Shown one piece after another: positions 3,701 through 17,232 of a stretch of 20,390 bases of DNA. Position 1 is the first letter of the stretch. The number at the start of each line of letters is the position of its first letter. The notes below the pieces were generated by a model. That model did no database searches. It had not been told where the DNA came from and was given only the letters and a program-made list of their open reading frames with translations. Source of the DNA: a virus (lineage: Duplodnaviria; Heunggongvirae; Uroviricota; Caudoviricetes); the IMG/VR virus record IMGVR_UViG_2579778982_000025, positions 1-20,390 of that record. One strand, given 5' to 3'. Made by a program: the position numbers and the translations under genes.

Positions 3701-4765
3701 TTACACCTGTGCGACGTTATACCATGTGCCATTGATGTATTTTTGTATTGGCCTGAAGATGGCTTCATCATCGCCATCTACTTCACCAATGATTCTTAAT
3801 CCGGTAATTGCGTGTCCGGCTTTTTCATAACGACCACCACGCGCCATCAATTGAACAACACGTGTGCCAAGTCGGACATCTCTCACATAGCGTGAGTCAA
3901 AATTGCCATAATTGTCGGGAATAACTTGCGCACCACAAAGCCAGTTACCGTTATTATCCATGTACGCCTGACCATCGGTGCCATTGGCTGTCCTTGAGTT
4001 ATTAATCATGTAGATGCCAAATTGCTTGTTCCCCAGTCCACCTATCATGAACTTTCGGTCGGCGTGATTCTGGCGAAGTAACGCCTGAGCGCTATCAGTG
4101 TTAACTATATTTTTCCCAAAGATAGCGTTGTTATCGCGCATCTGAATCCACATACCATTACTGCTGTTAATAGCAAAACGGTCTGAAAGTGTCTCCCCTG
4201 AAACATTAAGACCACGCCCCATCGAAACAGCGCCAGTAGCGTTATTAATCCATAATGGCCTTAATCCGTTATAAGTCCCCATGTTGTCACCGGAGTTTGT
4301 CAACATGAAGTATGTATCTGAACCATCATTACGAATAAAGAATCCGTAATTACCATAAGCAATACGTAGGCCGTTTGCTGATTTTGATATGACTTCGCCA
4401 TTTACAATGGCATTGACAAGAACATACAAAGCATCCCATTTAAGATTCATCAGGTCTTTTGTTGTGGTACTTTGTTTGCTTCTCCATTTGAAATATTCAT
4501 TGCCGTTGTCGCCTGTCTCAAACCACATGTATGAATCAGTGTCACCATCGGCATCATTTTTAAATCCAATCTTCGCCCAGTCAGTATTTCGAATCCAAGC
4601 AAGGATTGAGTCATTTTCAAAAGTAAGCCCACCGGACAAGGTATCGCCATTCTTTTGCACGGCGTTACCAACCCTGTTTACCGTTTCCTGCAAACCGAGG
4701 TTTTTGAGAATTGCCTCTGTGTCGTCTGGACGATATTTTTTTCCGCTTTTAGCAACAATCGCGGT
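3701..4765 (-). CDS. tail fibre protein, alternative variable C-terminal module, fused to a 24-codon remnant of a constant region
   Basis: Minus-strand frame is open from the stop at 4766-4768 down to 3701. Passes through the right crossover site with the same NLGLQETVN codons as the left module. Only 24 codons (TAIVAKSGKKYRPDDTEAILKNLG) lie outside the site. C-terminus ...IQKYINGTWYNVAQV. The ORF-track start at 4693 is a TTG inside the crossover site. Confidence 0.7.
   Translation of the reverse strand, partial: TAIVAKSGKKYRPDDTEAILKNLGLQETVNRVGNAVQKNGDTLSGGLTFENDSILAWIRNTDWAKIGFKNDADGDTDSYMWFETGDNGNEYFKWRSKQSTTTKDLMNLKWDALYVLVNAIVNGEVISKSANGLRIAYGNYGFFIRNDGSDTYFMLTNSGDNMGTYNGLRPLWINNATGAVSMGRGLNVSGETLSDRFAINSSNGMWIQMRDNNAIFGKNIVNTDSAQALLRQNHADRKFMIGGLGNKQFGIYMINNSRTANGTDGQAYMDNNGNWLCGAQVIPDNYGNFDSRYVRDVRLGTRVVQLMARGGRYEKAGHAITGLRIIGEVDGDDEAIFRPIQKYINGTWYNVAQV
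4685..4710. repeat. right inversion crossover site (inverted partner of 1635-1660)
   Basis: Plus strand ttcctgcaaaccgaggtttttgagaa; reverse complement aligns to the left site with 3 mismatches. Confidence 0.8.
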
Positions 4766-4774
4766 TTAGAAAGT

Positions 4775-5329
4775 ATGCAATATGGTTATGCGAGGGTGTC
4801 AACTTTTGACCAGAATTTGGAATTACAACTGGAGGCGCTCAGGAGTTCAGGATGTGACCGGATTTTTGAAGATAAAATATCCGGTGCTAAATCAAAACGA
4901 CCAGGACTTGATAAGCTACTGAAGGTGTTACGTCCGGGCGATACGGTTATTGTCTGGAAGCTGGACCGAATGGGGCGTTCTCTGATTCATCTTGTTGATT
5001 TACTTAACCATTTTTTATCAAACAACATTGAGTTTATTTCGATTACGGAAGGGATAAAAATTAGCACTTCAATTGGCCGCTTTGCCTACACGATGCTGAG
5101 TGCAGTCGCAGAGATGGAGCGGGAAAATATGATTGAAAGAACGCGTGCAGGATTGGCGGTGGCAAGGGCTAACGGCAGGATAGGAGGACGCCGCTCAAAG
5201 CTGGCACCAGAGCAATGGGAACAGATCGGAAGGCTTATTGCGAATGGTGTTTCACGTAAGCGGATAGCGATTATCTTCGATGTTACCTTATCCACGCTTT
5301 ACCGCAGGTTTCCGGCTGGGAATCATTGA
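4775..5329 (+). CDS. serine recombinase (invertase/resolvase family), invertase 2
   Basis: MQYGYARVSTFDQNLELQLEAL...VIVWKLDRMGRS...AVAEMERENMIERT...GGRRSKL...STLYRRFPAG, 184 aa. ATG at 4775; the ORF-track 4655 start is an unsupported N-terminal extension. Candidate promoter TTGCCT (4711-4716) - N17 - TATTTT abuts the right crossover site. Clearly divergent in sequence from invertase 1. Confidence 0.8.
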   Translation: MQYGYARVSTFDQNLELQLEALRSSGCDRIFEDKISGAKSKRPGLDKLLKVLRPGDTVIVWKLDRMGRSLIHLVDLLNHFLSNNIEFISITEGIKISTSIGRFAYTMLSAVAEMERENMIERTRAGLAVARANGRIGGRRSKLAPEQWEQIGRLIANGVSRKRIAIIFDVTLSTLYRRFPAGNH

Positions 5330-5460
5330 CTGGAGTTAGGCCAGTAGTATGATGCTCGCAAAACGAGATCCAATTTAGATCCTTTTACTGGTGGATTATC
5401 GTTCGATCAGTGAGAGACTTCGTGCATGACCGAAAGTGTTGTGGTAGAGTTCTCTTAAAA

Positions 5461-5473
5461 CCACGTAACGTGG
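5461..5473. promoter_or_regulatory. operator-like palindrome CCACG-TAA-CGTGG upstream of the repA control region
   Basis: Perfect 5-3-5 inverted repeat with the same CCAC(A/G)-N3-(C/T)GTGG architecture as the sites clustered in the cI/cro intergenic region; next to a TATGAT -10-like hexamer at 5475-5480. Confidence 0.4.
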
Positions 5474-5511
5474 TTATGATTGTGGGTGTCTGGTTGGAAA
5501 CTGACCAGATA

Positions 5512-5630
5512 TGGAAACAAAAAGCCCGCAGATAAATCTGCGGGCTTCTTGCGACATCCACGGAAAACCAACAACAACAATCCATGGGCGCCTCGACAAC
5601 TCCCATTATACGTTGGTTTTCCGTGGACGC
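5512..5630 (-). ncRNA. candidate CopA-like antisense RNA of the repA leader (IncFII-type copy-number control)
   Basis: Two hairpins in the repA leader. A long stem-loop has a 15-bp stem ccacggaaaaccaac (5558-5572) / gttggttttccgtgg (5612-5626) and a ~39-nt loop. On the minus strand it is followed by aagcccgcaga-ttta-tctgcgggctt (5522-5547) and then a T-run (complement of 5509-5520), a rho-independent terminator oriented for minus-strand transcription. The RNA ends are not mapped. Confidence 0.45.
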
Positions 5631-5642
5631 AAGAGCGAACAT

Positions 5643-6491
5643 ATGGATAGACCAATGCCGTCTCTACGTTCCGCTTACGTTTGTAATTTGTCGCCGGAGT
5701 TCCAGCCTCCAAAGCACCATACGCACAAGCTGCCGCTGGTGTTATCTGATGCTTTACAGCGCATTAATGGGCGTGATCTTACGTGTGAGGTTGCGTTCTA
5801 CGTTAATCAACCGTCAGAGCGGAAGCGCCGGATAAACGAGCATCGTCGTCGGGCGATTAATGCTGTGATCGCTGCGATTTTGCACCATGTAAACATCATT
5901 TCTAAGCGGGTTCTGGCTAGTGCTGAGGCGTTGGCTGATTTTTGCGGCCTGTCTACCGTATCCGAAGCTGGGAACAAGTCTATAACGCGCTGTACAAGGG
6001 CGTTGTCGCAACTGAAAGCGTTAGGGTTTATTGATTATGAACGTCGCTGGGATCGGGTGAATAAACAGTATTGGCCAGCGAAAATAGAGATTCGTGATCA
6101 ACTGCTGGAAACCGTTGGTATTACTGAACAAGCATGGAGACGTGCGGTTAGCCAGAAACTTAATTACTTCAATGCGAAGAATAGCGAACGGCTTAAAAAA
6201 GCGATAACGGAGGCTGATTATAAGCGTATTGTTATTCAGGAGCAGATGGAGAATGTATGGCGTCAGAGGAAGACGGCCAGAGAGATAAAGGCAAAACAGA
6301 AAGCAGCGGAGAGAGCTGCGCGTCTTGTTCGGGAAAAGGGAGAGGCCGAACTTCGTCATCAAATCACTAGAGAGGTTAGCCAGGAATTTGCTGATGGCAT
6401 GTATCCTGGAGCTGACCTTGCATATTTACGATCCCTCGTTGAGCAGCGTTATAACAGGTTAAGAAAGACCTGGAAATCACTCCAACATTAA
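5643..6491 (+). CDS. repA: plasmid replication initiator RepA (IncFII RepA1-like)
   Basis: ...GNKSITRCTRALSQLKALGFIDYERRWD... resembles the R100/R1 RepA1 motif (..KLSITRATRALTFLSELGLITYQ..), with an Arg/Lys-rich C-terminal half. Preceded by antisense-RNA-like hairpins and followed by a DnaA box plus AT-rich region. Start at ATG 5643 (MDRPMPSLRS...) is preferred because the ORF-track start at 5511 lies inside the antisense terminator hairpin. An IncFII-type leader peptide may exist in another frame ending at 5648-5650, but I cannot place its start. Confidence 0.75.
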   Translation: MDRPMPSLRSAYVCNLSPEFQPPKHHTHKLPLVLSDALQRINGRDLTCEVAFYVNQPSERKRRINEHRRRAINAVIAAILHHVNIISKRVLASAEALADFCGLSTVSEAGNKSITRCTRALSQLKALGFIDYERRWDRVNKQYWPAKIEIRDQLLETVGITEQAWRRAVSQKLNYFNAKNSERLKKAITEADYKRIVIQEQMENVWRQRKTAREIKAKQKAAERAARLVREKGEAELRHQITREVSQEFADGMYPGADLAYLRSLVEQRYNRLRKTWKSLQH

Positions 6492-6599
6492 CCCACCTTA
6501 ATGATGAATCCGGTTTTACCGGAGGATTATCTACGTCGCAATAAAATATCTGTTCAAAAAACAAGCTAAATTAATTTTCTCTAAACCTGAACACAGCAA

Positions 6600-6740
6600 A
6601 AATATCGCCTTCACAGGCATCGGCTAATAAAGTTATCCACAGTTTTGATATGTATATGCAAATGGTTTTTTATAATAGATGCACTAAACAAATAAATGCA
6701 AAATCACTTTCTTTTATTAAGACTTTCTTTATTTAACTTA
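6600..6740. other. putative replication origin (DnaA box plus AT-rich unwinding region)
   Basis: Perfect DnaA box TTATCCACA at 6633-6641, ~140 bp downstream of repA, followed by ~100 bp of very AT-rich sequence (6642-6740). Matches the repA-then-oriR layout of IncFII replicons. Confidence 0.5.
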
Positions 6741-7134
6741 CGCAGGCTTTGCCTGTGAATATGTTCGCCCTTGCAGCGAGCTAAAGCTCGCGCCGGTTCG
6801 AGTCGCTACGCTCAAATATACCTCCTCCGGCACTTGCCGGAGGCATGGAGCAGCCTGATCATCCTTTTCGAAACGGCGCGTTTCGAACTATACAAAATCA
6901 ATTTATATAAGGCCGAAATGAGGCCTACGGCCGGGCTTTGCAGGAGGAAGGAGCGAGCCTTATCGATAAACGTCGATAAATACGCACACAGTAGCCATCA
7001 GAACGCGATAAAACGTAAGAAACATCATTTCCTATTAGACATAGAAAACTTGTCTTATACGCAATGTAGTAAATTTCTATTGCCACATAGGAAAAGATTT
7101 CCTACCATCGTAGATATAATAAATGGAGATGGTT

Positions 7135-11188: not shown

Positions 11189-11216
11189 AAGCGCCCAAAT
11201 CGGGCGCTTTGTTTTA
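11189..11216. terminator. bidirectional terminator
   Basis: aagcgccc-aaatc-gggcgctt followed by tgtttt, between convergent genes. Confidence 0.6.
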
Positions 11217-12356
11217 TGGTTTTGCACCTGCGGCCAGTTTATCCGCCGATATCTTTATCAGTTCCTGTAGTGTCCTGGCTGGTAGGTTTGCATCCAGTAC
11301 GCTGAGTATGCTGCTGTGATCTGCCTGGTCGACTACTTTGCCTGTCGGTGGTAGTAGCTTGAGCTGAGGATTCAGGTTTTCGTCAAAGCTGATCAGTGCT
11401 CTGGCGTTTCTGAGCAGATCAAGAAGTAAGGCTGATATCACATTTTCCTGAGTCATTGCTGGCAGATTTAGCGCCGCTTTGGTTTTCCCTGTTGCCTTGT
11501 CAAACTCCTTGATTAGTTCCTTCCTGTAGTTCGGTTCCGTTAATAGCCGATTATGCTCTGTTGCCGCGCGGATAATCGTTTTTTCCTGGTACAGTCGTTT
11601 AGCCAGATCACGCTCGTACTGTGTTTTTAACACGCTGCTGATAGCGTTAAAGGCTTCAATGTAGGCCAGCTTGATATCTTTCACGCTTGGACCGTCGATG
11701 CTCTCCATGAGTAAGGTAAATCCGTCTTTTGTCATGCGATAGATTGTTATTTCGCGGTCGCTTCCTTCCAGCGGTCGTTGCTCTTTAAAGAAGTGACGCG
11801 CCGCAGCCGTGCGAGGAATGCGTAGCGCATCGATGGCCATAACGATGGAATTGTTTGTGGTGCTGAATGCCTGGGCAACATCGGCTGAGGTTGTGAGTGG
11901 CTCGTTGTTGCACACTTTAATGTAAAACATCGGTTTGGCGTTGAGCGTATCGACAACCTCACGAGCATTGTTTGGCGAGACGGTAACGGTCGCGGCCGTT
12001 TGCGCGTTCTGGTTGAAGTAGCAGTCTTCCAGCCGTTCGAACACATCCCACGCTTGGTTAGTTTCAAGCATTTTGGCGTGACGTGCAGCCCCGCGTTCGG
12101 TCCAGAGGATTAGTTTTCTAACGTTATTCGCGATGGTTTGAAAATCTCTTAAAGAGATTTTCAAACTTTGGAGATCTGTACCTTTTACAACTATGAAATG
12201 TTTTCCTTCTGTAAACCGGGACTTATTACGGTGGTGATTTCTGTGAAGACATTCGACGCTACAGCCATATAGTTTGGCAAGCAGCTCCGTGGTGATAACG
12301 GGGATCTGGTTATGCAGGATAGGCTGTAGGGTGTTAACGGTCGGAAGCGTTTTCAT
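11214..12356 (-). CDS. phage antirepressor-like protein (ORF6N/Rha-type N-terminal DNA-binding domains, long C-terminal region)
   Basis: 380 aa. N-terminal ...ITTELLAKLYGCSVECLHRNHHRNKSRFTEGKHFIVVKG... resembles ORF6N-type antirepressor domains; a second similar segment ...TTSADVAQAFSTTNNSIVMAIDAL follows. Family assignment is from memory of motifs only. Confidence 0.55.
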   Translation of the reverse strand: MKTLPTVNTLQPILHNQIPVITTELLAKLYGCSVECLHRNHHRNKSRFTEGKHFIVVKGTDLQSLKISLRDFQTIANNVRKLILWTERGAARHAKMLETNQAWDVFERLEDCYFNQNAQTAATVTVSPNNAREVVDTLNAKPMFYIKVCNNEPLTTSADVAQAFSTTNNSIVMAIDALRIPRTAAARHFFKEQRPLEGSDREITIYRMTKDGFTLLMESIDGPSVKDIKLAYIEAFNAISSVLKTQYERDLAKRLYQEKTIIRAATEHNRLLTEPNYRKELIKEFDKATGKTKAALNLPAMTQENVISALLLDLLRNARALISFDENLNPQLKLLPPTGKVVDQADHSSILSVLDANLPARTLQELIKISADKLAAGAKP

Positions 12357-12640
12357 TTTGCACCTCCCATAACTACTTTGGTTACGAGGGAGATTTTTGC
12401 GTCAGAAACAGCGTTATCGTTGCTGGCGATGCGCATAGCTTCGCGCTCGATGATTTCAGCCAGGCGGAATTTATCGGCGTATGAGGCTTTCTTGAGAAGG
12501 ATCTTTACGAGGTTGACGTAATAGTCATGGGGTAAGTTTGTCATGATGATAGTTCCAGTTTTGATATTGGAATAATCACCACCGCTGACGCCAATCAGTG
12601 AGGTGGTGAGACGTACAGGGTTGGCGTAACCGGTCATCAT
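12353..12640 (-). CDS. hypothetical protein
   Basis: Stop overlaps the start of the antirepressor-like gene in an ATGA arrangement, suggesting translational coupling. Start ambiguous between 12640 and an internal ATG (MTNLPHD...). Confidence 0.4.
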   Translation of the reverse strand: MMTGYANPVRLTTSLIGVSGGDYSNIKTGTIIMTNLPHDYYVNLVKILLKKASYADKFRLAEIIEREAMRIASNDNAVSDAKISLVTKVVMGGAK

Positions 12641-12844
12641 GATACCCGGCGAGCCTTACGGCTCCCCCGCACGCCCCACCATAATTCGGGTGTAGCTGTG
12701 CTTTACGCATAAAAAAACCGCTAACGCGGTATGCGCCATGATGATTATCGGGACGCCAATCCCGACCGTAGATTTTGCTACGGCTCGGAAAGTGTCCACC
12801 AATGGCGCATTTATGTCAATACAGCGGGATTTTAACAGACTAAA

Positions 12845-12857
12845 CCACATAGTGTGG
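12845..12857. promoter_or_regulatory. operator-like palindrome CCACA-TAG-TGTGG
   Basis: Same motif class as the cI/cro operators; in the divergent intergenic region 12641-12994. Confidence 0.4.
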
Positions 12858-12883
12858 GTTTGAATGCGGGGCTTTTAATTTTC

Positions 12884-12994: not shown

Positions 12995-13534
12995 ATGATT
13001 GAACTGTCAAAAAACTCATGTTTTTCAACCATTCACCTAATGATCATAAAAGAACTTAGGCTAGAAAGAGGTGTGCATCAAGGAGTACTGGCTCAAGCTG
13101 CTGGAAAAACACCAAACGCATGGACAAAGATAGAGAACGGGCAGTCTGTATTAACAGTTGACGCCCTTTTTGGTGCTTTCACAGCCCTTAATATTACTCC
13201 AGTGAATTTCATGTCATTGGTAGAAAATCTTATTCCCGAATTTAACCGTTATGGTTACTTCTTTTTCCCTGGAACAATCAGTCAGGACGAGGATAACCTT
13301 TTACCTCTGATGCTGCGTTACTTTAATAGCAAGGGGTTTGAAGCATTGAGAAATAGGCCATTCGAAAGAGTTAGCATTAGCTCAATGGGATTCTCATTTG
13401 GGGGCGGCATCCCTGTTACTCCAACTGCTGTAATGTATTGTTGCGATGAAGCATATAGAAATTGGGTCGATAACGGTGCTGATGTGGATAATCGAGATTA
13501 TCTGGAGTCATCAACAGGTCGTGGACTGTTTTAA
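12995..13534 (+). CDS. HTH (XRE-like) domain protein with C-terminal domain of unknown function
   Basis: 179 aa. N-terminal LMIIKELRLERGVHQGVLAQAAGKTPNAWTKIENGQSV is HTH-like. RBS GGGGA upstream of ATG 12995. Confidence 0.55.
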   Translation: MIELSKNSCFSTIHLMIIKELRLERGVHQGVLAQAAGKTPNAWTKIENGQSVLTVDALFGAFTALNITPVNFMSLVENLIPEFNRYGYFFFPGTISQDEDNLLPLMLRYFNSKGFEALRNRPFERVSISSMGFSFGGGIPVTPTAVMYCCDEAYRNWVDNGADVDNRDYLESSTGRGLF

Positions 13535-13739: not shown

Positions 13740-13971
13740 GTAGGTTACTGATTTTGTGAAAATAAACTGTTTTTTTCGTTTAATTTCTTTCCTATTACTA
13801 ATCTTAAAATAATCGTAAAATACCTGTGGACCTTCCCGCCGATTCGCACCCGGGCACCGACTTTAGGGGAGGATTTCCTGTTGCCGTACATGCAAGCACA
13901 AGCAGCCGTGCTTGCTCTCGCGTTGTTTTCGTCGGTGGGGATGTCGTGAAACGGCCTGTAAGGGCCACACA

Positions 13972-14094
13972 ATGAAAAAATACTACATGTGTATTTTTAT
14001 CGTTGTTACTGGAGCTTTGTTTACGCCACATGGGGAGGGTTGGAAGATTACTGATAACGCTCTGAATGTGACGATAAACATTAGCAGCAAGTAG
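13972..14094 (+). CDS. small hydrophobic peptide (40 aa), candidate small membrane protein or type I toxin
   Basis: MKKYYMCIFIVVTGALFTPHGEGWKITDNALNVTINISSK. RBS AGGG 7 nt upstream. Strong terminator immediately downstream. Confidence 0.4.
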   Translation: MKKYYMCIFIVVTGALFTPHGEGWKITDNALNVTINISSK

Positions 14095-14099
14095 CGATT

Positions 14100-14123
14100 A
14101 GGCCCCTTCGGGGGCCTTTTTTA
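14100..14123 (+). terminator. rho-independent terminator
   Basis: aggcccc-ttcg-ggggcct followed by tttttta. Confidence 0.7.
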
Positions 14124-15815: not shown

Positions 15816-15851
15816 GCGTAGCCTCTTTTATACTTTTACATGTTGTCAAAA

Positions 15852-15864
15852 CCACAAAATGTGG
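15852..15864. promoter_or_regulatory. operator-like palindrome CCACA-AAA-TGTGG
   Basis: Perfect inverted repeat within aaaccacaaaatgtggttttttt, between the repressor gene and 15441..15815. Confidence 0.45.
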
Positions 15865-15907
15865 TTTTTTTGAGCGTAGAAATGCACGGCTTTCGCCGTG
15901 CTGTGTA

Positions 15908-16564
15908 TCATAACCAGTTGACAACACTAACTACGCGGCCAAGAACTTTATAACGCTTAAATTCCTCGTTATTCAGATGATTAGTGTTCATTTCAGCGTC
16001 CCTTTCGGTTGACAGCATAACAGCATTGTCACCCGGTATGACTCTACAGTGCCTCAAAACAACCAGGCCATTTCTGTCTTCAAGGGCATAGATCCCCTCA
16101 TGAATCTCTGTATCGTCTGTATCAATCAGGACTTGGGAGCCAGGGGATATTGTTGGTGACATTAACTCATCGTTGCTCTGGAGAACTGACAGAGACGATG
16201 GGTTGATGTTCTTGCTTCGTAGAATCTCCTGTTCTATCGCCAGCACTGGCTTTTCTCCGGCGTGCGATGCTATGTCATTTTTTATAGCTACAAGCCCAGG
16301 AATAACAGGAGCGTTAGTATTCTGGGGTGGGAACGGGTTATCTGTTAAGCACGCGATATAAGGCGCTGATGCTTTCAGGGCGTGCGCGATTTTCTTGATG
16401 GCAGGTATAGATGGTTGTCTTAATCCGGCCTCATAGTTCTGCAAGGTGCTTAAGCCTATTCCAGTGACTTGCTGGAGATCTCCGGCAGTCATGCCGGATT
16501 GTTTCCGTAGAGTCTGAATGCGCAGACCTATTTCTTTCTTGATGTTCTCGTCGTTGCTTTTCAT
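15908..16564 (-). CDS. CI/LexA-like phage repressor (N-terminal HTH, C-terminal S24 peptidase-like autocleavage domain)
   Basis: 218 aa. N-terminal HTH (LRKQSGMTAGDLQQVTGIGLSTLQNYEAG). C-terminal region with MSPTISPGSQVLIDT and KVLGRVVSVV resembles the Ser/Lys dyad regions of LexA and lambda CI. Divergent from a Cro-like gene, with operators between. Confidence 0.8.
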   Translation of the reverse strand: MKSNDENIKKEIGLRIQTLRKQSGMTAGDLQQVTGIGLSTLQNYEAGLRQPSIPAIKKIAHALKASAPYIACLTDNPFPPQNTNAPVIPGLVAIKNDIASHAGEKPVLAIEQEILRSKNINPSSLSVLQSNDELMSPTISPGSQVLIDTDDTEIHEGIYALEDRNGLVVLRHCRVIPGDNAVMLSTERDAEMNTNHLNNEEFKRYKVLGRVVSVVNWL

Positions 16565-16602
16565 GTCTCATCAATCGTGAATGGTGGGTTATTTATACAT
16601 TA

Positions 16603-16718
16603 CCACATTTAGTGGTTTTCACATGGTAAGACGAGAGGTGGACCACAAATAGAAGGTTATTTTTTGTTTCGCCCATTGAAAAACTCACGATATGTGGTTT
16701 TAATACCACATATCGTGG
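16603..16718. promoter_or_regulatory. immunity-region operators and PR-like promoter
   Basis: Operator-like sites CCACA-TTT-AGTGG (16603-16615), TCACG-ATA-TGTGG (16685-16697) and CCACA-TAT-CGTGG (16706-16718). The last two are inverted copies of each other, 21 bp centre to centre. They bracket a strong promoter TTGAAA (16676-16681) - 17 bp - TTTAAT (16699-16704) reading into the Cro-like gene. Confidence 0.6.
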
Positions 16719-16737
16719 TTTAACTGGAGTTCGTTAA

Positions 16738-17232
16738 ATGACCTTTCAGGAGTGGGTTGACGAAAATGGAGGCCAAATTGGTGTTGCCAGAAAGTTTGGC
16801 TTTACGTCATCACTGATTGGTGCCTGGTATCGCTTCGAGAGATTCCCTCGTGCGGATAACCTGACGCTGCTGGTGGCGTATTCGGAAGGCCGGATTAACG
16901 TCCAGCAATGGGCGGCAGATTTTGCCGAACGTCAGCGCCAGCGTAGCGATGGCACATCGGTTCGGCAGAACAAGATCAAAGGGAATCTCCCTGTTAACTG
17001 CTTATCAAGGCTGAAAGCGGTTTTCTCTGAGCTGGGGATGCCTGCGGAGCGTTGCAATCTACGCGGTCCGCGATTCATTGCTCGCTGGAAACACTCACAC
17101 GTAACCGTTTCAGAGGTTCGTGATGCGATTGCCGTGCTGGAGCTTAAGAATAAAGATTCCAGCGATATCGAGCTGATTCATAAGGAGATTAGCAACGCCC
17201 GGCGTTCAGCACTTGGGAGGCTTGAGGAATGA
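16738..17232 (+). CDS. Cro/YdaS-like HTH regulator with C-terminal extension
   Basis: N-terminus ...GGQIGVARKFGFTSSLIGAWYRFERFPRADNLTLLVAYSEGRINVQ resembles Cro/YdaS-type HTH proteins. RBS GGAG (16726-16729). First gene of the operon divergent from the repressor. Confidence 0.6.
   Translation: MTFQEWVDENGGQIGVARKFGFTSSLIGAWYRFERFPRADNLTLLVAYSEGRINVQQWAADFAERQRQRSDGTSVRQNKIKGNLPVNCLSRLKAVFSELGMPAERCNLRGPRFIARWKHSHVTVSEVRDAIAVLELKNKDSSDIELIHKEISNARRSALGRLEE

Follow-up and report, generated by a model that had tools for sequence, protein, structure and literature searches.

A candidate CI-type repressor operator in the copB-less repA leader of an IncFII-type phage-plasmid

What controls transcription of the replication initiator in an element that is both a phage and a plasmid? 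The question is raised by a palindrome in the repA leader of a viral DNA of 20,390 nucleotides (the window, by which we mean this whole stretch). A sequence-only reading had placed a phage-operator-like palindrome at the repA promoter, in the position that CopB control occupies in IncFII plasmids, and had proposed that plasmid replication is thereby put under the phage repressor, coupling copy number to the lysogeny switch. We examined the element to which the window belongs, the layout of the leader, the distribution and conservation of the motif, and the protein that might read it.

The repA leader (5330-5660) shows 100% identity to that of the circular 49-kb Yersinia phage vB_YpM_44 (OR545055), and 97-100% identity to those of some 60 non-mobilizable plasmids with a length of about 48 kb, from E. 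coli and related bacteria, among them the ATCC 25922 plasmid NZ_CP009073. These plasmids carry myovirus-type tail and head genes alongside repA and parA, and are therefore phage-plasmids. A bioRxiv preprint of August 2026 defines a new phage-plasmid family, 'p-p47', and names CP032086 as one of its members (10.64898/2026.08.19.745698). CP032086 is among the records with a 100% match to the leader of the window, which belongs to this family. The E. coli ATCC 25922 plasmid (48,488 bp, 83% coding) served as the complete reference element; pSLy3 (114 kb), also considered, is a separate element. Upstream of the leader, a Hin-family invertase gene (4655-5329) lies beside an invertible segment of about 3 kb, which is bounded by 66-nt inverted repeats (1630-1695 and 4650-4715, 74% complementary) and holds alternative tail-fibre and tail-fibre-assembly genes.

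The initiator is a member of the IncFII_repA family, its product matching PF02387 with E = 8e-44 over residues 9-275 of 282, and the N-terminus MPSLRSAYVCN aligns with those of the Salmonella and Yokenella proteins. RepA is only about 31% identical to the classical IncFII RepA, in an alignment that spans roughly half the protein. Outside the family, the closest RepA (37% identical) is that of K. pneumoniae p09A18011_A_KPC, a plasmid with type IV secretion genes that was set aside as uninformative for comparing repressors. The stretch with a DnaA box that follows repA (Table 1) is, from its sequence, the probable oriR. Among the annotated genes, many of which are of unknown function, no second replication initiator is recognisable, and an early protein with DUF3560 has a primase-like PHROG match; RepA may also drive lytic replication.

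Between the initiator and the invertase gene lies a leader that resembles the one known from R1. An antisense RNA like CopA is predicted on the minus strand, with a promoter of TTGCGT (5632-5627), 16 nt and TATAAT (5610-5605), and a terminator hairpin (5524-5545) followed by a U-run. Its fold has a z-score of -6.0, and the terminator stem is preserved by compensatory changes in Serratia. An Rfam search over 5300-5700, at the gathering threshold and at E <= 10, returned no CopA and no meaningful family, the best matches in that interval being to a generic terminator shape alone. In the preprint, copy-up mutations are reported to fall in the predicted CopA/CopT, 58-86 nt upstream of repA (10.64898/2026.08.19.745698). 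No candidate for copB was found, as the interval from the invertase stop (5329) to repA contains no complete plus-strand ORF of 50 aa or more. When the leader was checked for a tap-like leader peptide, the ORF MGASTTPII (start 5584) had a conserved start and a stop whose position is not conserved; this ORF overlaps the best-conserved part of the CopT loop, CGCCTCGACAACTCC, which is identical from E. coli to Serratia. The predicted layout is thus that of R1, with two promoters, an antisense RNA and a downstream origin, but without CopB and with a CI-type operator instead.

The operator candidate is the palindrome CCACGTAACGTGG, which is present at 5461-5473 as the earlier reading had it and extends to a perfect palindrome of 17 bp, AACCACGTAACGTGGTT (5459-5475; written as arms, AACCACGT-A-ACGTGGTT). 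It lies 180 nt before repA and 9 nt after a conserved extended -10 element. A hairpin (5486-5512) follows it, and a micro-ORF of 10 codons, MTESVVVEFS (5426-5458), with a counterpart in Salmonella, ends at it. The architecture said to be shared with the operators between the repressor and Cro-like genes is indeed found there, with 5-bp arms one helical turn apart, and the likeness goes far beyond chance. In the generalised form ACCAC-N5-GTGGT, the motif occurs exactly at 5460, 15851, 16602 and 16705 of the window and with one mismatch at 12844, making five copies with at most one mismatch where 0.38 are expected, a number that was not attained in any of 100 shuffles. In the complete element of 48,488 bp, the exact copies, four in number, all fall in intergenic DNA: two in the cI/cro region, one just 3' of cI and one before repA. 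The one-mismatch copies that lie inside genes (three in the complete element) look like chance. The cI/cro region has the organisation of a lambdoid operator set, namely dyads of about 17 bp that are repeated between a divergent repressor gene and cro and overlap promoters, and the copy between cI and the orf124-parA operon is kept in every lineage, so that the partition genes (the orf124-parA-parG-like operon) appear to belong to the same repressor regulon.

Table 1. Coordinates of the features discussed, as positions in the 20,390-nt window
Feature	Position	Strand	Description
P1 promoter	5326-5353	+	TTGACT, 16 nt, TATGAT; 10/12 matches in promoter scan
P2, putative PrepA-like promoter	5442-5450	+	Extended -10 TGGTAGAGT; predicted start near 5457
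O_rep	5459-5475		AACCACGTAACGTGGTT, perfect palindrome of 17 bp; candidate operator for the CI-like repressor, repA leader
CopA-like antisense RNA (predicted)	5517-5598	-	Read from sequence; 5' end approximate
repA	5655-6491	+	IncFII_repA-family initiator, 278 aa; start set by comparison with relatives
DnaA box	6633-6641	+	Perfect, TTATCCACA; in AT-rich stretch (25-34% GC, 6500-6750) right after repA
One-mismatch site	12844-12858		Between antirepressor operon and divergent HTH gene; exact match in L025
Operator 3' of cI	15850-15866		AACCACAAAATGTGGTT, near-perfect 17-mer with exact motif; between cI and orf124-parA operon
CI-like repressor	15908-16564	-	HTH_3 and divergent S24-like C-terminal domain
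Operator nearest cI start	16601-16617		TACCACATTTAGTGGTT, exact motif copy
Degenerate operator	16642-16656		ACCAC-AAATA-GAAGG; cI/cro region
Cro-side promoter	16676-16704	+	TTGAAA (16676-16681), 17 nt, TTTAAT (16699-16704); read from sequence
Degenerate operator	16684-16698		CTCAC-GATAT-GTGGT; fills spacer of cro-side promoter
Operator at cro-side promoter	16704-16720		Exact motif copy; abuts the -10
Cro-like protein	16738-17232	+	First gene of early operon, 164 aa; N-terminus like P22-type Cro by eye

In order to follow the site among relatives, leaders were collected with the promoter element as anchor, and not the motif, which avoids ascertainment bias. The site is present in 11 of 11 distinct leader variants of the enteric clade, which represent three main types (E. 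coli; Salmonella/Citrobacter; Yokenella/C. amalonaticus). None of the 12 half-site positions (AACCAC...GTGGTT) varies, and four of the five spacer positions do (GTAAC, GTTGT, GATGT), as do 12 of 44 positions in the upstream flank and 31 of 39 in the downstream flank. Variable columns thus number 0/12 in the half-sites versus 47/88 elsewhere (Fisher p = 2.5e-4, for related sequences with few independent events). Invariant half-sites around a free spacer are what characterises DNA that is read by a protein dimer. The spacing between the site and TGnTAGAGT is also fixed, at 9 nt in five lineages.

Homologs of the repressor are few and 61-67% identical (Salmonella, Citrobacter, K. aerogenes, Yokenella), all on contigs of about 46-49 kb from the same family, and these contigs keep ACCAC-N5-GTGGT at the same positions, including the one upstream of repA. 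For a covariation test, no relative with clearly switched immunity specificity was found among these 61-67% homologs, the Serratia elements described below being partly diverged. A profile search of genome contigs with a ParA alignment found no relative, a pattern scan of viral contigs found no lineage beyond those already known, and a pattern scan of metagenomes gave 120 chance matches, with the leader in none of them.

Two Serratia phage-plasmids, NZ_CP074139 (L026, with a siphovirus-type tail) and CP083756 (L027, myovirus-type), share the backbone of the E. coli family in the order repA, Rha antirepressor, parA, orf124, cI, divergent cro164, ref and DUF1064. Their virion modules are unlike those of the E. 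coli family, as if entire modules had been exchanged around a plasmid and immunity core that stayed conserved. The Serratia repressor is 33-34% identical, with an invariant recognition helix (STLQNYE) and different residues preceding it (GL vs PR), and in keeping with this the cI/cro operators are related but not identical (ACTAC-AAAAT-GTAGT, ACTGC-AAAAT-GTGGT and ACCTC-AATCT-GTGGT). At the homologous position in the repA leader, L027 has ACCCC-GAAAT-GTGGT and L026 has GGCCC-GATGT-GTGGT, whose left half-site is degenerate, so that the full operator is not universal in the wider clade. In L027, the 10-mer AAATGTGGTT occurs three times in 46.8 kb (0.07 expected), once each at the homologous position of the repA leader, 3' of cI and within the operator at the cro-side promoter, so that a second clade, too, has its repA leader linked to the immunity operators. 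The looser pattern ACYNC-N5-GNRGT, with 7 matches where about 3 are expected, is too weak to inform. L027 also carries blaTEM-1, and on its minus strand two TGTGGTT half-sites 21 bp apart (42021 and 42042), between an HTH gene and the holin genes, may mark another regulated promoter.

Which promoter would such an operator control? The sequence-only reading had pointed to TATGAT at 5475-5480. This hexamer is present, but as a -10 it has no usable -35 (the best candidate, read from the sequence, matches at 2/6 positions) and it is not conserved in the relatives, whose counterparts are TATGAA in Salmonella, TAAGTA in Yokenella and, in Serratia, TTTGAG or TTTGGT, which do not resemble a -10. The proposal of a phage-repressor operator at the repA promoter in the place of CopB is therefore supported in part: the motif, its conservation and the lack of copB all favour the operator, and the promoter assignment is corrected. 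Two other elements come into question. P1, about 100 nt upstream of the site, is the sole call of a simple promoter scan; Salmonella, Citrobacter and Serratia have it as well, and it is exact at a mosaic junction in the lineage L025, where a tail-fibre assembly gene stands in the place of the invertase directly before the leader, and its -35 is missing in one Yokenella contig. P2, which is absent from the calls of the scan and has no -35, is a putative promoter marked by TGnTAGAGT, an extended -10 that is unchanged across E. coli, Salmonella, Yokenella and the two Serratia lineages and always precedes the site by 9 nt. It is more likely, then, that the operator lies at about +2 to +19 of P2 and at about +100 of P1, for which it would be a roadblock. 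Between the two putative promoters there are GATC sites at 5367, 5378 and 5405 (window 5367-5408), a pair of which is conserved in Salmonella and Yokenella, with a GGATCC-N5-GGATCC hairpin and extra GATCs in Serratia; these may confer Dam/SeqA-sensitive control on the leader.

We consider it likely, from sequence comparison, that the palindrome is a CI-type repressor operator controlling repA transcription. In the mechanism that we propose, the operator in this copB-less leader of IncFII type would be read by the CI-like repressor, and possibly by the Cro-like protein too, and repA would have two promoters as in R1, the consensus-like P1 upstream and P2, which is predicted to start 1-3 bp ahead of the operator. 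Bound at 5459-5475, a dimer of the repressor would block P2 and hinder transcripts arriving from P1, so that in the lysogen repA mRNA would be low and the CopA-like RNA would set the fine copy number. A drop in repressor, caused either by dilution upon loss of copies or by inactivation through the antirepressor operon, would allow more repA transcription and the out-titration of CopA, and the outcome would be either a recovery of copy number or a surge of replication that serves lytic growth. In this mechanism the identity of the binding protein, the transcription starts, and how far and in which direction copy number responds are inferred.

As to this effect, the preprint shows copy control by CopA/CopT: 14 of 15 sequenced copy-up mutants are altered in CopA/CopT and none at the operator site, and the CopA/CopT mutations leave the repA transcript level unchanged (10.64898/2026.08.19.745698). 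For these reasons, loss of the operator may give only a modest increase in copies. The same source, whose text contains none of the words repressor, operator and CopB, describes a copy-up mutant, DA81419, with a SNP only in 'a potential transcriptional regulator' (10.64898/2026.08.19.745698). This SNP is a hint of repressor control of copy number.

The clustering of copy-up mutations in CopA/CopT, with none at the site, would also suit a different role for a repressor-bound site, that of a distal partner in cooperative or looped immunity repression, or of a weak and redundant brake, with CopA/CopT alone setting the number of copies. Lambda-type repressors do form loops via distant operators. 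Looping has been raised for phiKO2 as well (PMC4997575), but the site lies about 11 kb from the cI/cro operators, for which a much nearer copy is available at 15850-15866, and its fixed distance of 9 nt to a conserved -10 in five lineages argues for local promoter control. We therefore regard this role as unlikely.

Local control by the CI-like repressor presupposes that this protein, and not another, reads the motif. The repressor has an HTH_3 domain (E = 4.5e-11), matches the transcriptional repressors of phrog_4 (1.8e-27), and is the sole product of the element that combines a recognised HTH with a putative C-terminal domain of a dimerisation type suited to a 17-bp dyad. Its neighbours might be considered in its place, either the Cro-like protein of 164 aa or the conserved 124-aa protein encoded beside cI, in which case repA would be tied to a regulator of the lytic state or of maintenance. 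In every lineage the sites are accompanied by the Cro-like gene and by orf124, and one site also precedes the orf124-parA operon. Cro proteins normally share their operators with CI. In PY54 and phiKO2, however, Cro does not bind the repA operators (PMC4997575, PMC4488713), and here a recognised HTH together with a putative dimerisation domain is found in the CI-like protein alone, the Cro-like protein having a match to phrog_7452 (function unknown) and no match in Pfam; we find a binder of this kind quite improbable. As for the second HTH protein (12995-13534), the annotation of Salmonella L003 lacks it although all the sites are retained there, and it is thus unlikely to be the binder.

The C-terminal part of the repressor is divergent. 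Its match to the S24 family in Pfam scores 19.4 bits, below the cutoff of 23.3, and a sequence search of the PDB matched the HTH domain and nothing else. When the protein was compared with LexA by BLASTP and hhalign, the catalytic region remained unaligned and the C-terminal strand alone aligned, with similar endings (GRVVSVVNWL and, in LexA, GLAVGVIRNGDWL). The positions of the Ser/Lys dyad are occupied by Leu134 and Arg171 in a manual alignment, and are invariant in 12 homologs; judged from this alignment, the repressor is probably not self-cleaving. This fits the failed induction of the element by mitomycin C and ciprofloxacin that the preprint describes (10.64898/2026.08.19.745698), and induction probably proceeds via the antirepressor operon. 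The antirepressor module (11214-12860, minus strand) resembles P1 immI and consists of an isrK-like RNA (12711-12784), a C4-type antisense RNA (12599-12686), a small protein of the Ash family and an ORF6N+Rha antirepressor. The one-mismatch operator at 12844 lies about 30 bp upstream of the TTGACA -35 of this operon.

The palindrome could also act as RNA. Either where the repA mRNA begins or inside the leader transcribed from P1, it would fold into a hairpin of 7 bp, with a role in transcript stability or in the folding of CopT, and its likeness to operators would be incidental. The leader is indeed highly structured (z = -8.0), with the palindrome folding separately, and the spacer changes in the relatives are compatible with a hairpin. 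Such a role leaves unexplained why the stem equals the half-sites of operators at four other regulatory positions, and the hairpin is broken in both Serratia leaders, where the rest of the leader is conserved; nor would it be a terminator, as the T-run is missing. This reading is very unlikely in our view. An intrinsic terminator or attenuator had been rejected in its own right, there being no terminator-like site in 5250-5750 and the hairpin being followed by ATGATTGTGGG. Autoregulation by RepA was likewise discarded, because the presence of this motif in the immunity region as well speaks against binding by RepA.

That the palindrome arose by chance, or is a crossover site of the adjacent Hin-family invertase, whose gene ends about 130 bp before it and whose hix half-site (which we take to be TTCTCTTAAAACC) it loosely resembles, is barely credible: an exact match to the motif in a 300-bp leader has a probability of about 3e-4 by our own arithmetic, and the site is found in L025, and its homologous position in Serratia L026, neither with an invertase annotated beside repA. 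A Hin/Gin/Cin crossover site was also excluded because the inversion repeats lie elsewhere (1630-1695 and 4650-4715), and because the half-sites are not spaced as in a 26-bp hix.

A CI-type operator upstream of repA has precedents, and repressor control of the initiator of a plasmid-prophage, known from N15 and phiKO2, would be extended here rather than introduced as a new principle. The RepA of N15 and phiKO2 is an unrelated multidomain protein, whereas RepA here is of PF02387 and is accompanied by a predicted antisense-RNA layer. In both phages, CB binds OL operators at the repA promoter, which lowers repA transcription and the number of prophage copies (PMC4488713, PMC4997575). The logic is the same as that proposed here, with a CI-type repressor of a plasmid-prophage and operators both in the cI/cro region and at the initiator promoter, and in the window the motif likewise stands at the position of the repA promoter, itself a putative one. 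N15 and phiKO2 are, unlike this element, linear telomere phages, with two 16-bp OL sites (TA-N10-TA) as opposed to the single 17-bp ACCAC-N5-GTGGT, and binding is demonstrated for CB and predicted for the repressor considered here.

The circuit position, on the other hand, is that of R1. In R1, CopB represses the proximal repA promoter, upstream of CopT, a second, constitutive promoter lies further upstream, and CopA is the main controller. The element shares with R1 and R100 a repressor site, here a putative one, at the same place in the circuit (that of CopB, or RepA2), a RepA of the same Pfam family and a probable oriR with a DnaA box downstream. It differs in having no copB, its putative repressor being a phage CI-like HTH protein encoded 10 kb away, and in a RepA only distantly related to that of the IncFII plasmids R1 and R100 and a predicted antisense RNA without an Rfam match to CopA.

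Dispersed operators are known from other replicons. The operators of P1 C1 are scattered, and include Op51 (c4-icd-ant operon) and Op53 (repL). The likeness lies in the dispersal itself, which takes in a C4-type antirepressor operon and a replication function; C1, however, controls the lytic replicon repL and not the plasmid replicon, belongs to a different protein family and has asymmetric operators. KorA and KorB of IncP-1 plasmids have operators at the replication-initiator, partition and other operons. There too, one repressor presides over operons of the plasmid backbone, but neither the proteins nor the motifs are related to those described here, and a phage switch is lacking.

What would be new here, judging from the arrangement of the locus, is repressor control grafted onto an antisense-controlled replicon of IncFII type without CopB, a replicon type for which such control was previously unreported. 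If true, control circuits of phage and plasmid would be fused in one element, an IncFII-type replicon having lost CopB and borrowed the lysogeny repressor. This would give a simple switch for a single replicon, held at 1-2 copies during lysogeny and amplified upon induction, and would account for homoimmune exclusion of incoming copies. A rise in copy number of these elements leads to piperacillin-tazobactam heteroresistance, according to the preprint (10.64898/2026.08.19.745698), and mutations in the repressor or operator would then be an additional route to it. The broadest version of this proposal, which we put forward tentatively as a possibility, is that CI has taken over from CopB the transcriptional side of copy control of the IncFII type and also governs the partition and antirepressor operons, that one RepA/oriR replicon serves both lysogenic maintenance and lytic amplification through the occupancy of one operator, and that repressor hypomorphs of the DA81419 kind are a second route to clinical antibiotic heteroresistance driven by copy number.

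Apart from these circuits, the phage-plasmid carries a full-length match to the ryfA RNA at 13826-14122 (plus strand; 144.7 bits, gathering score 80), located between the HTH gene and the par genes, which may be a small-toxin/sRNA locus.
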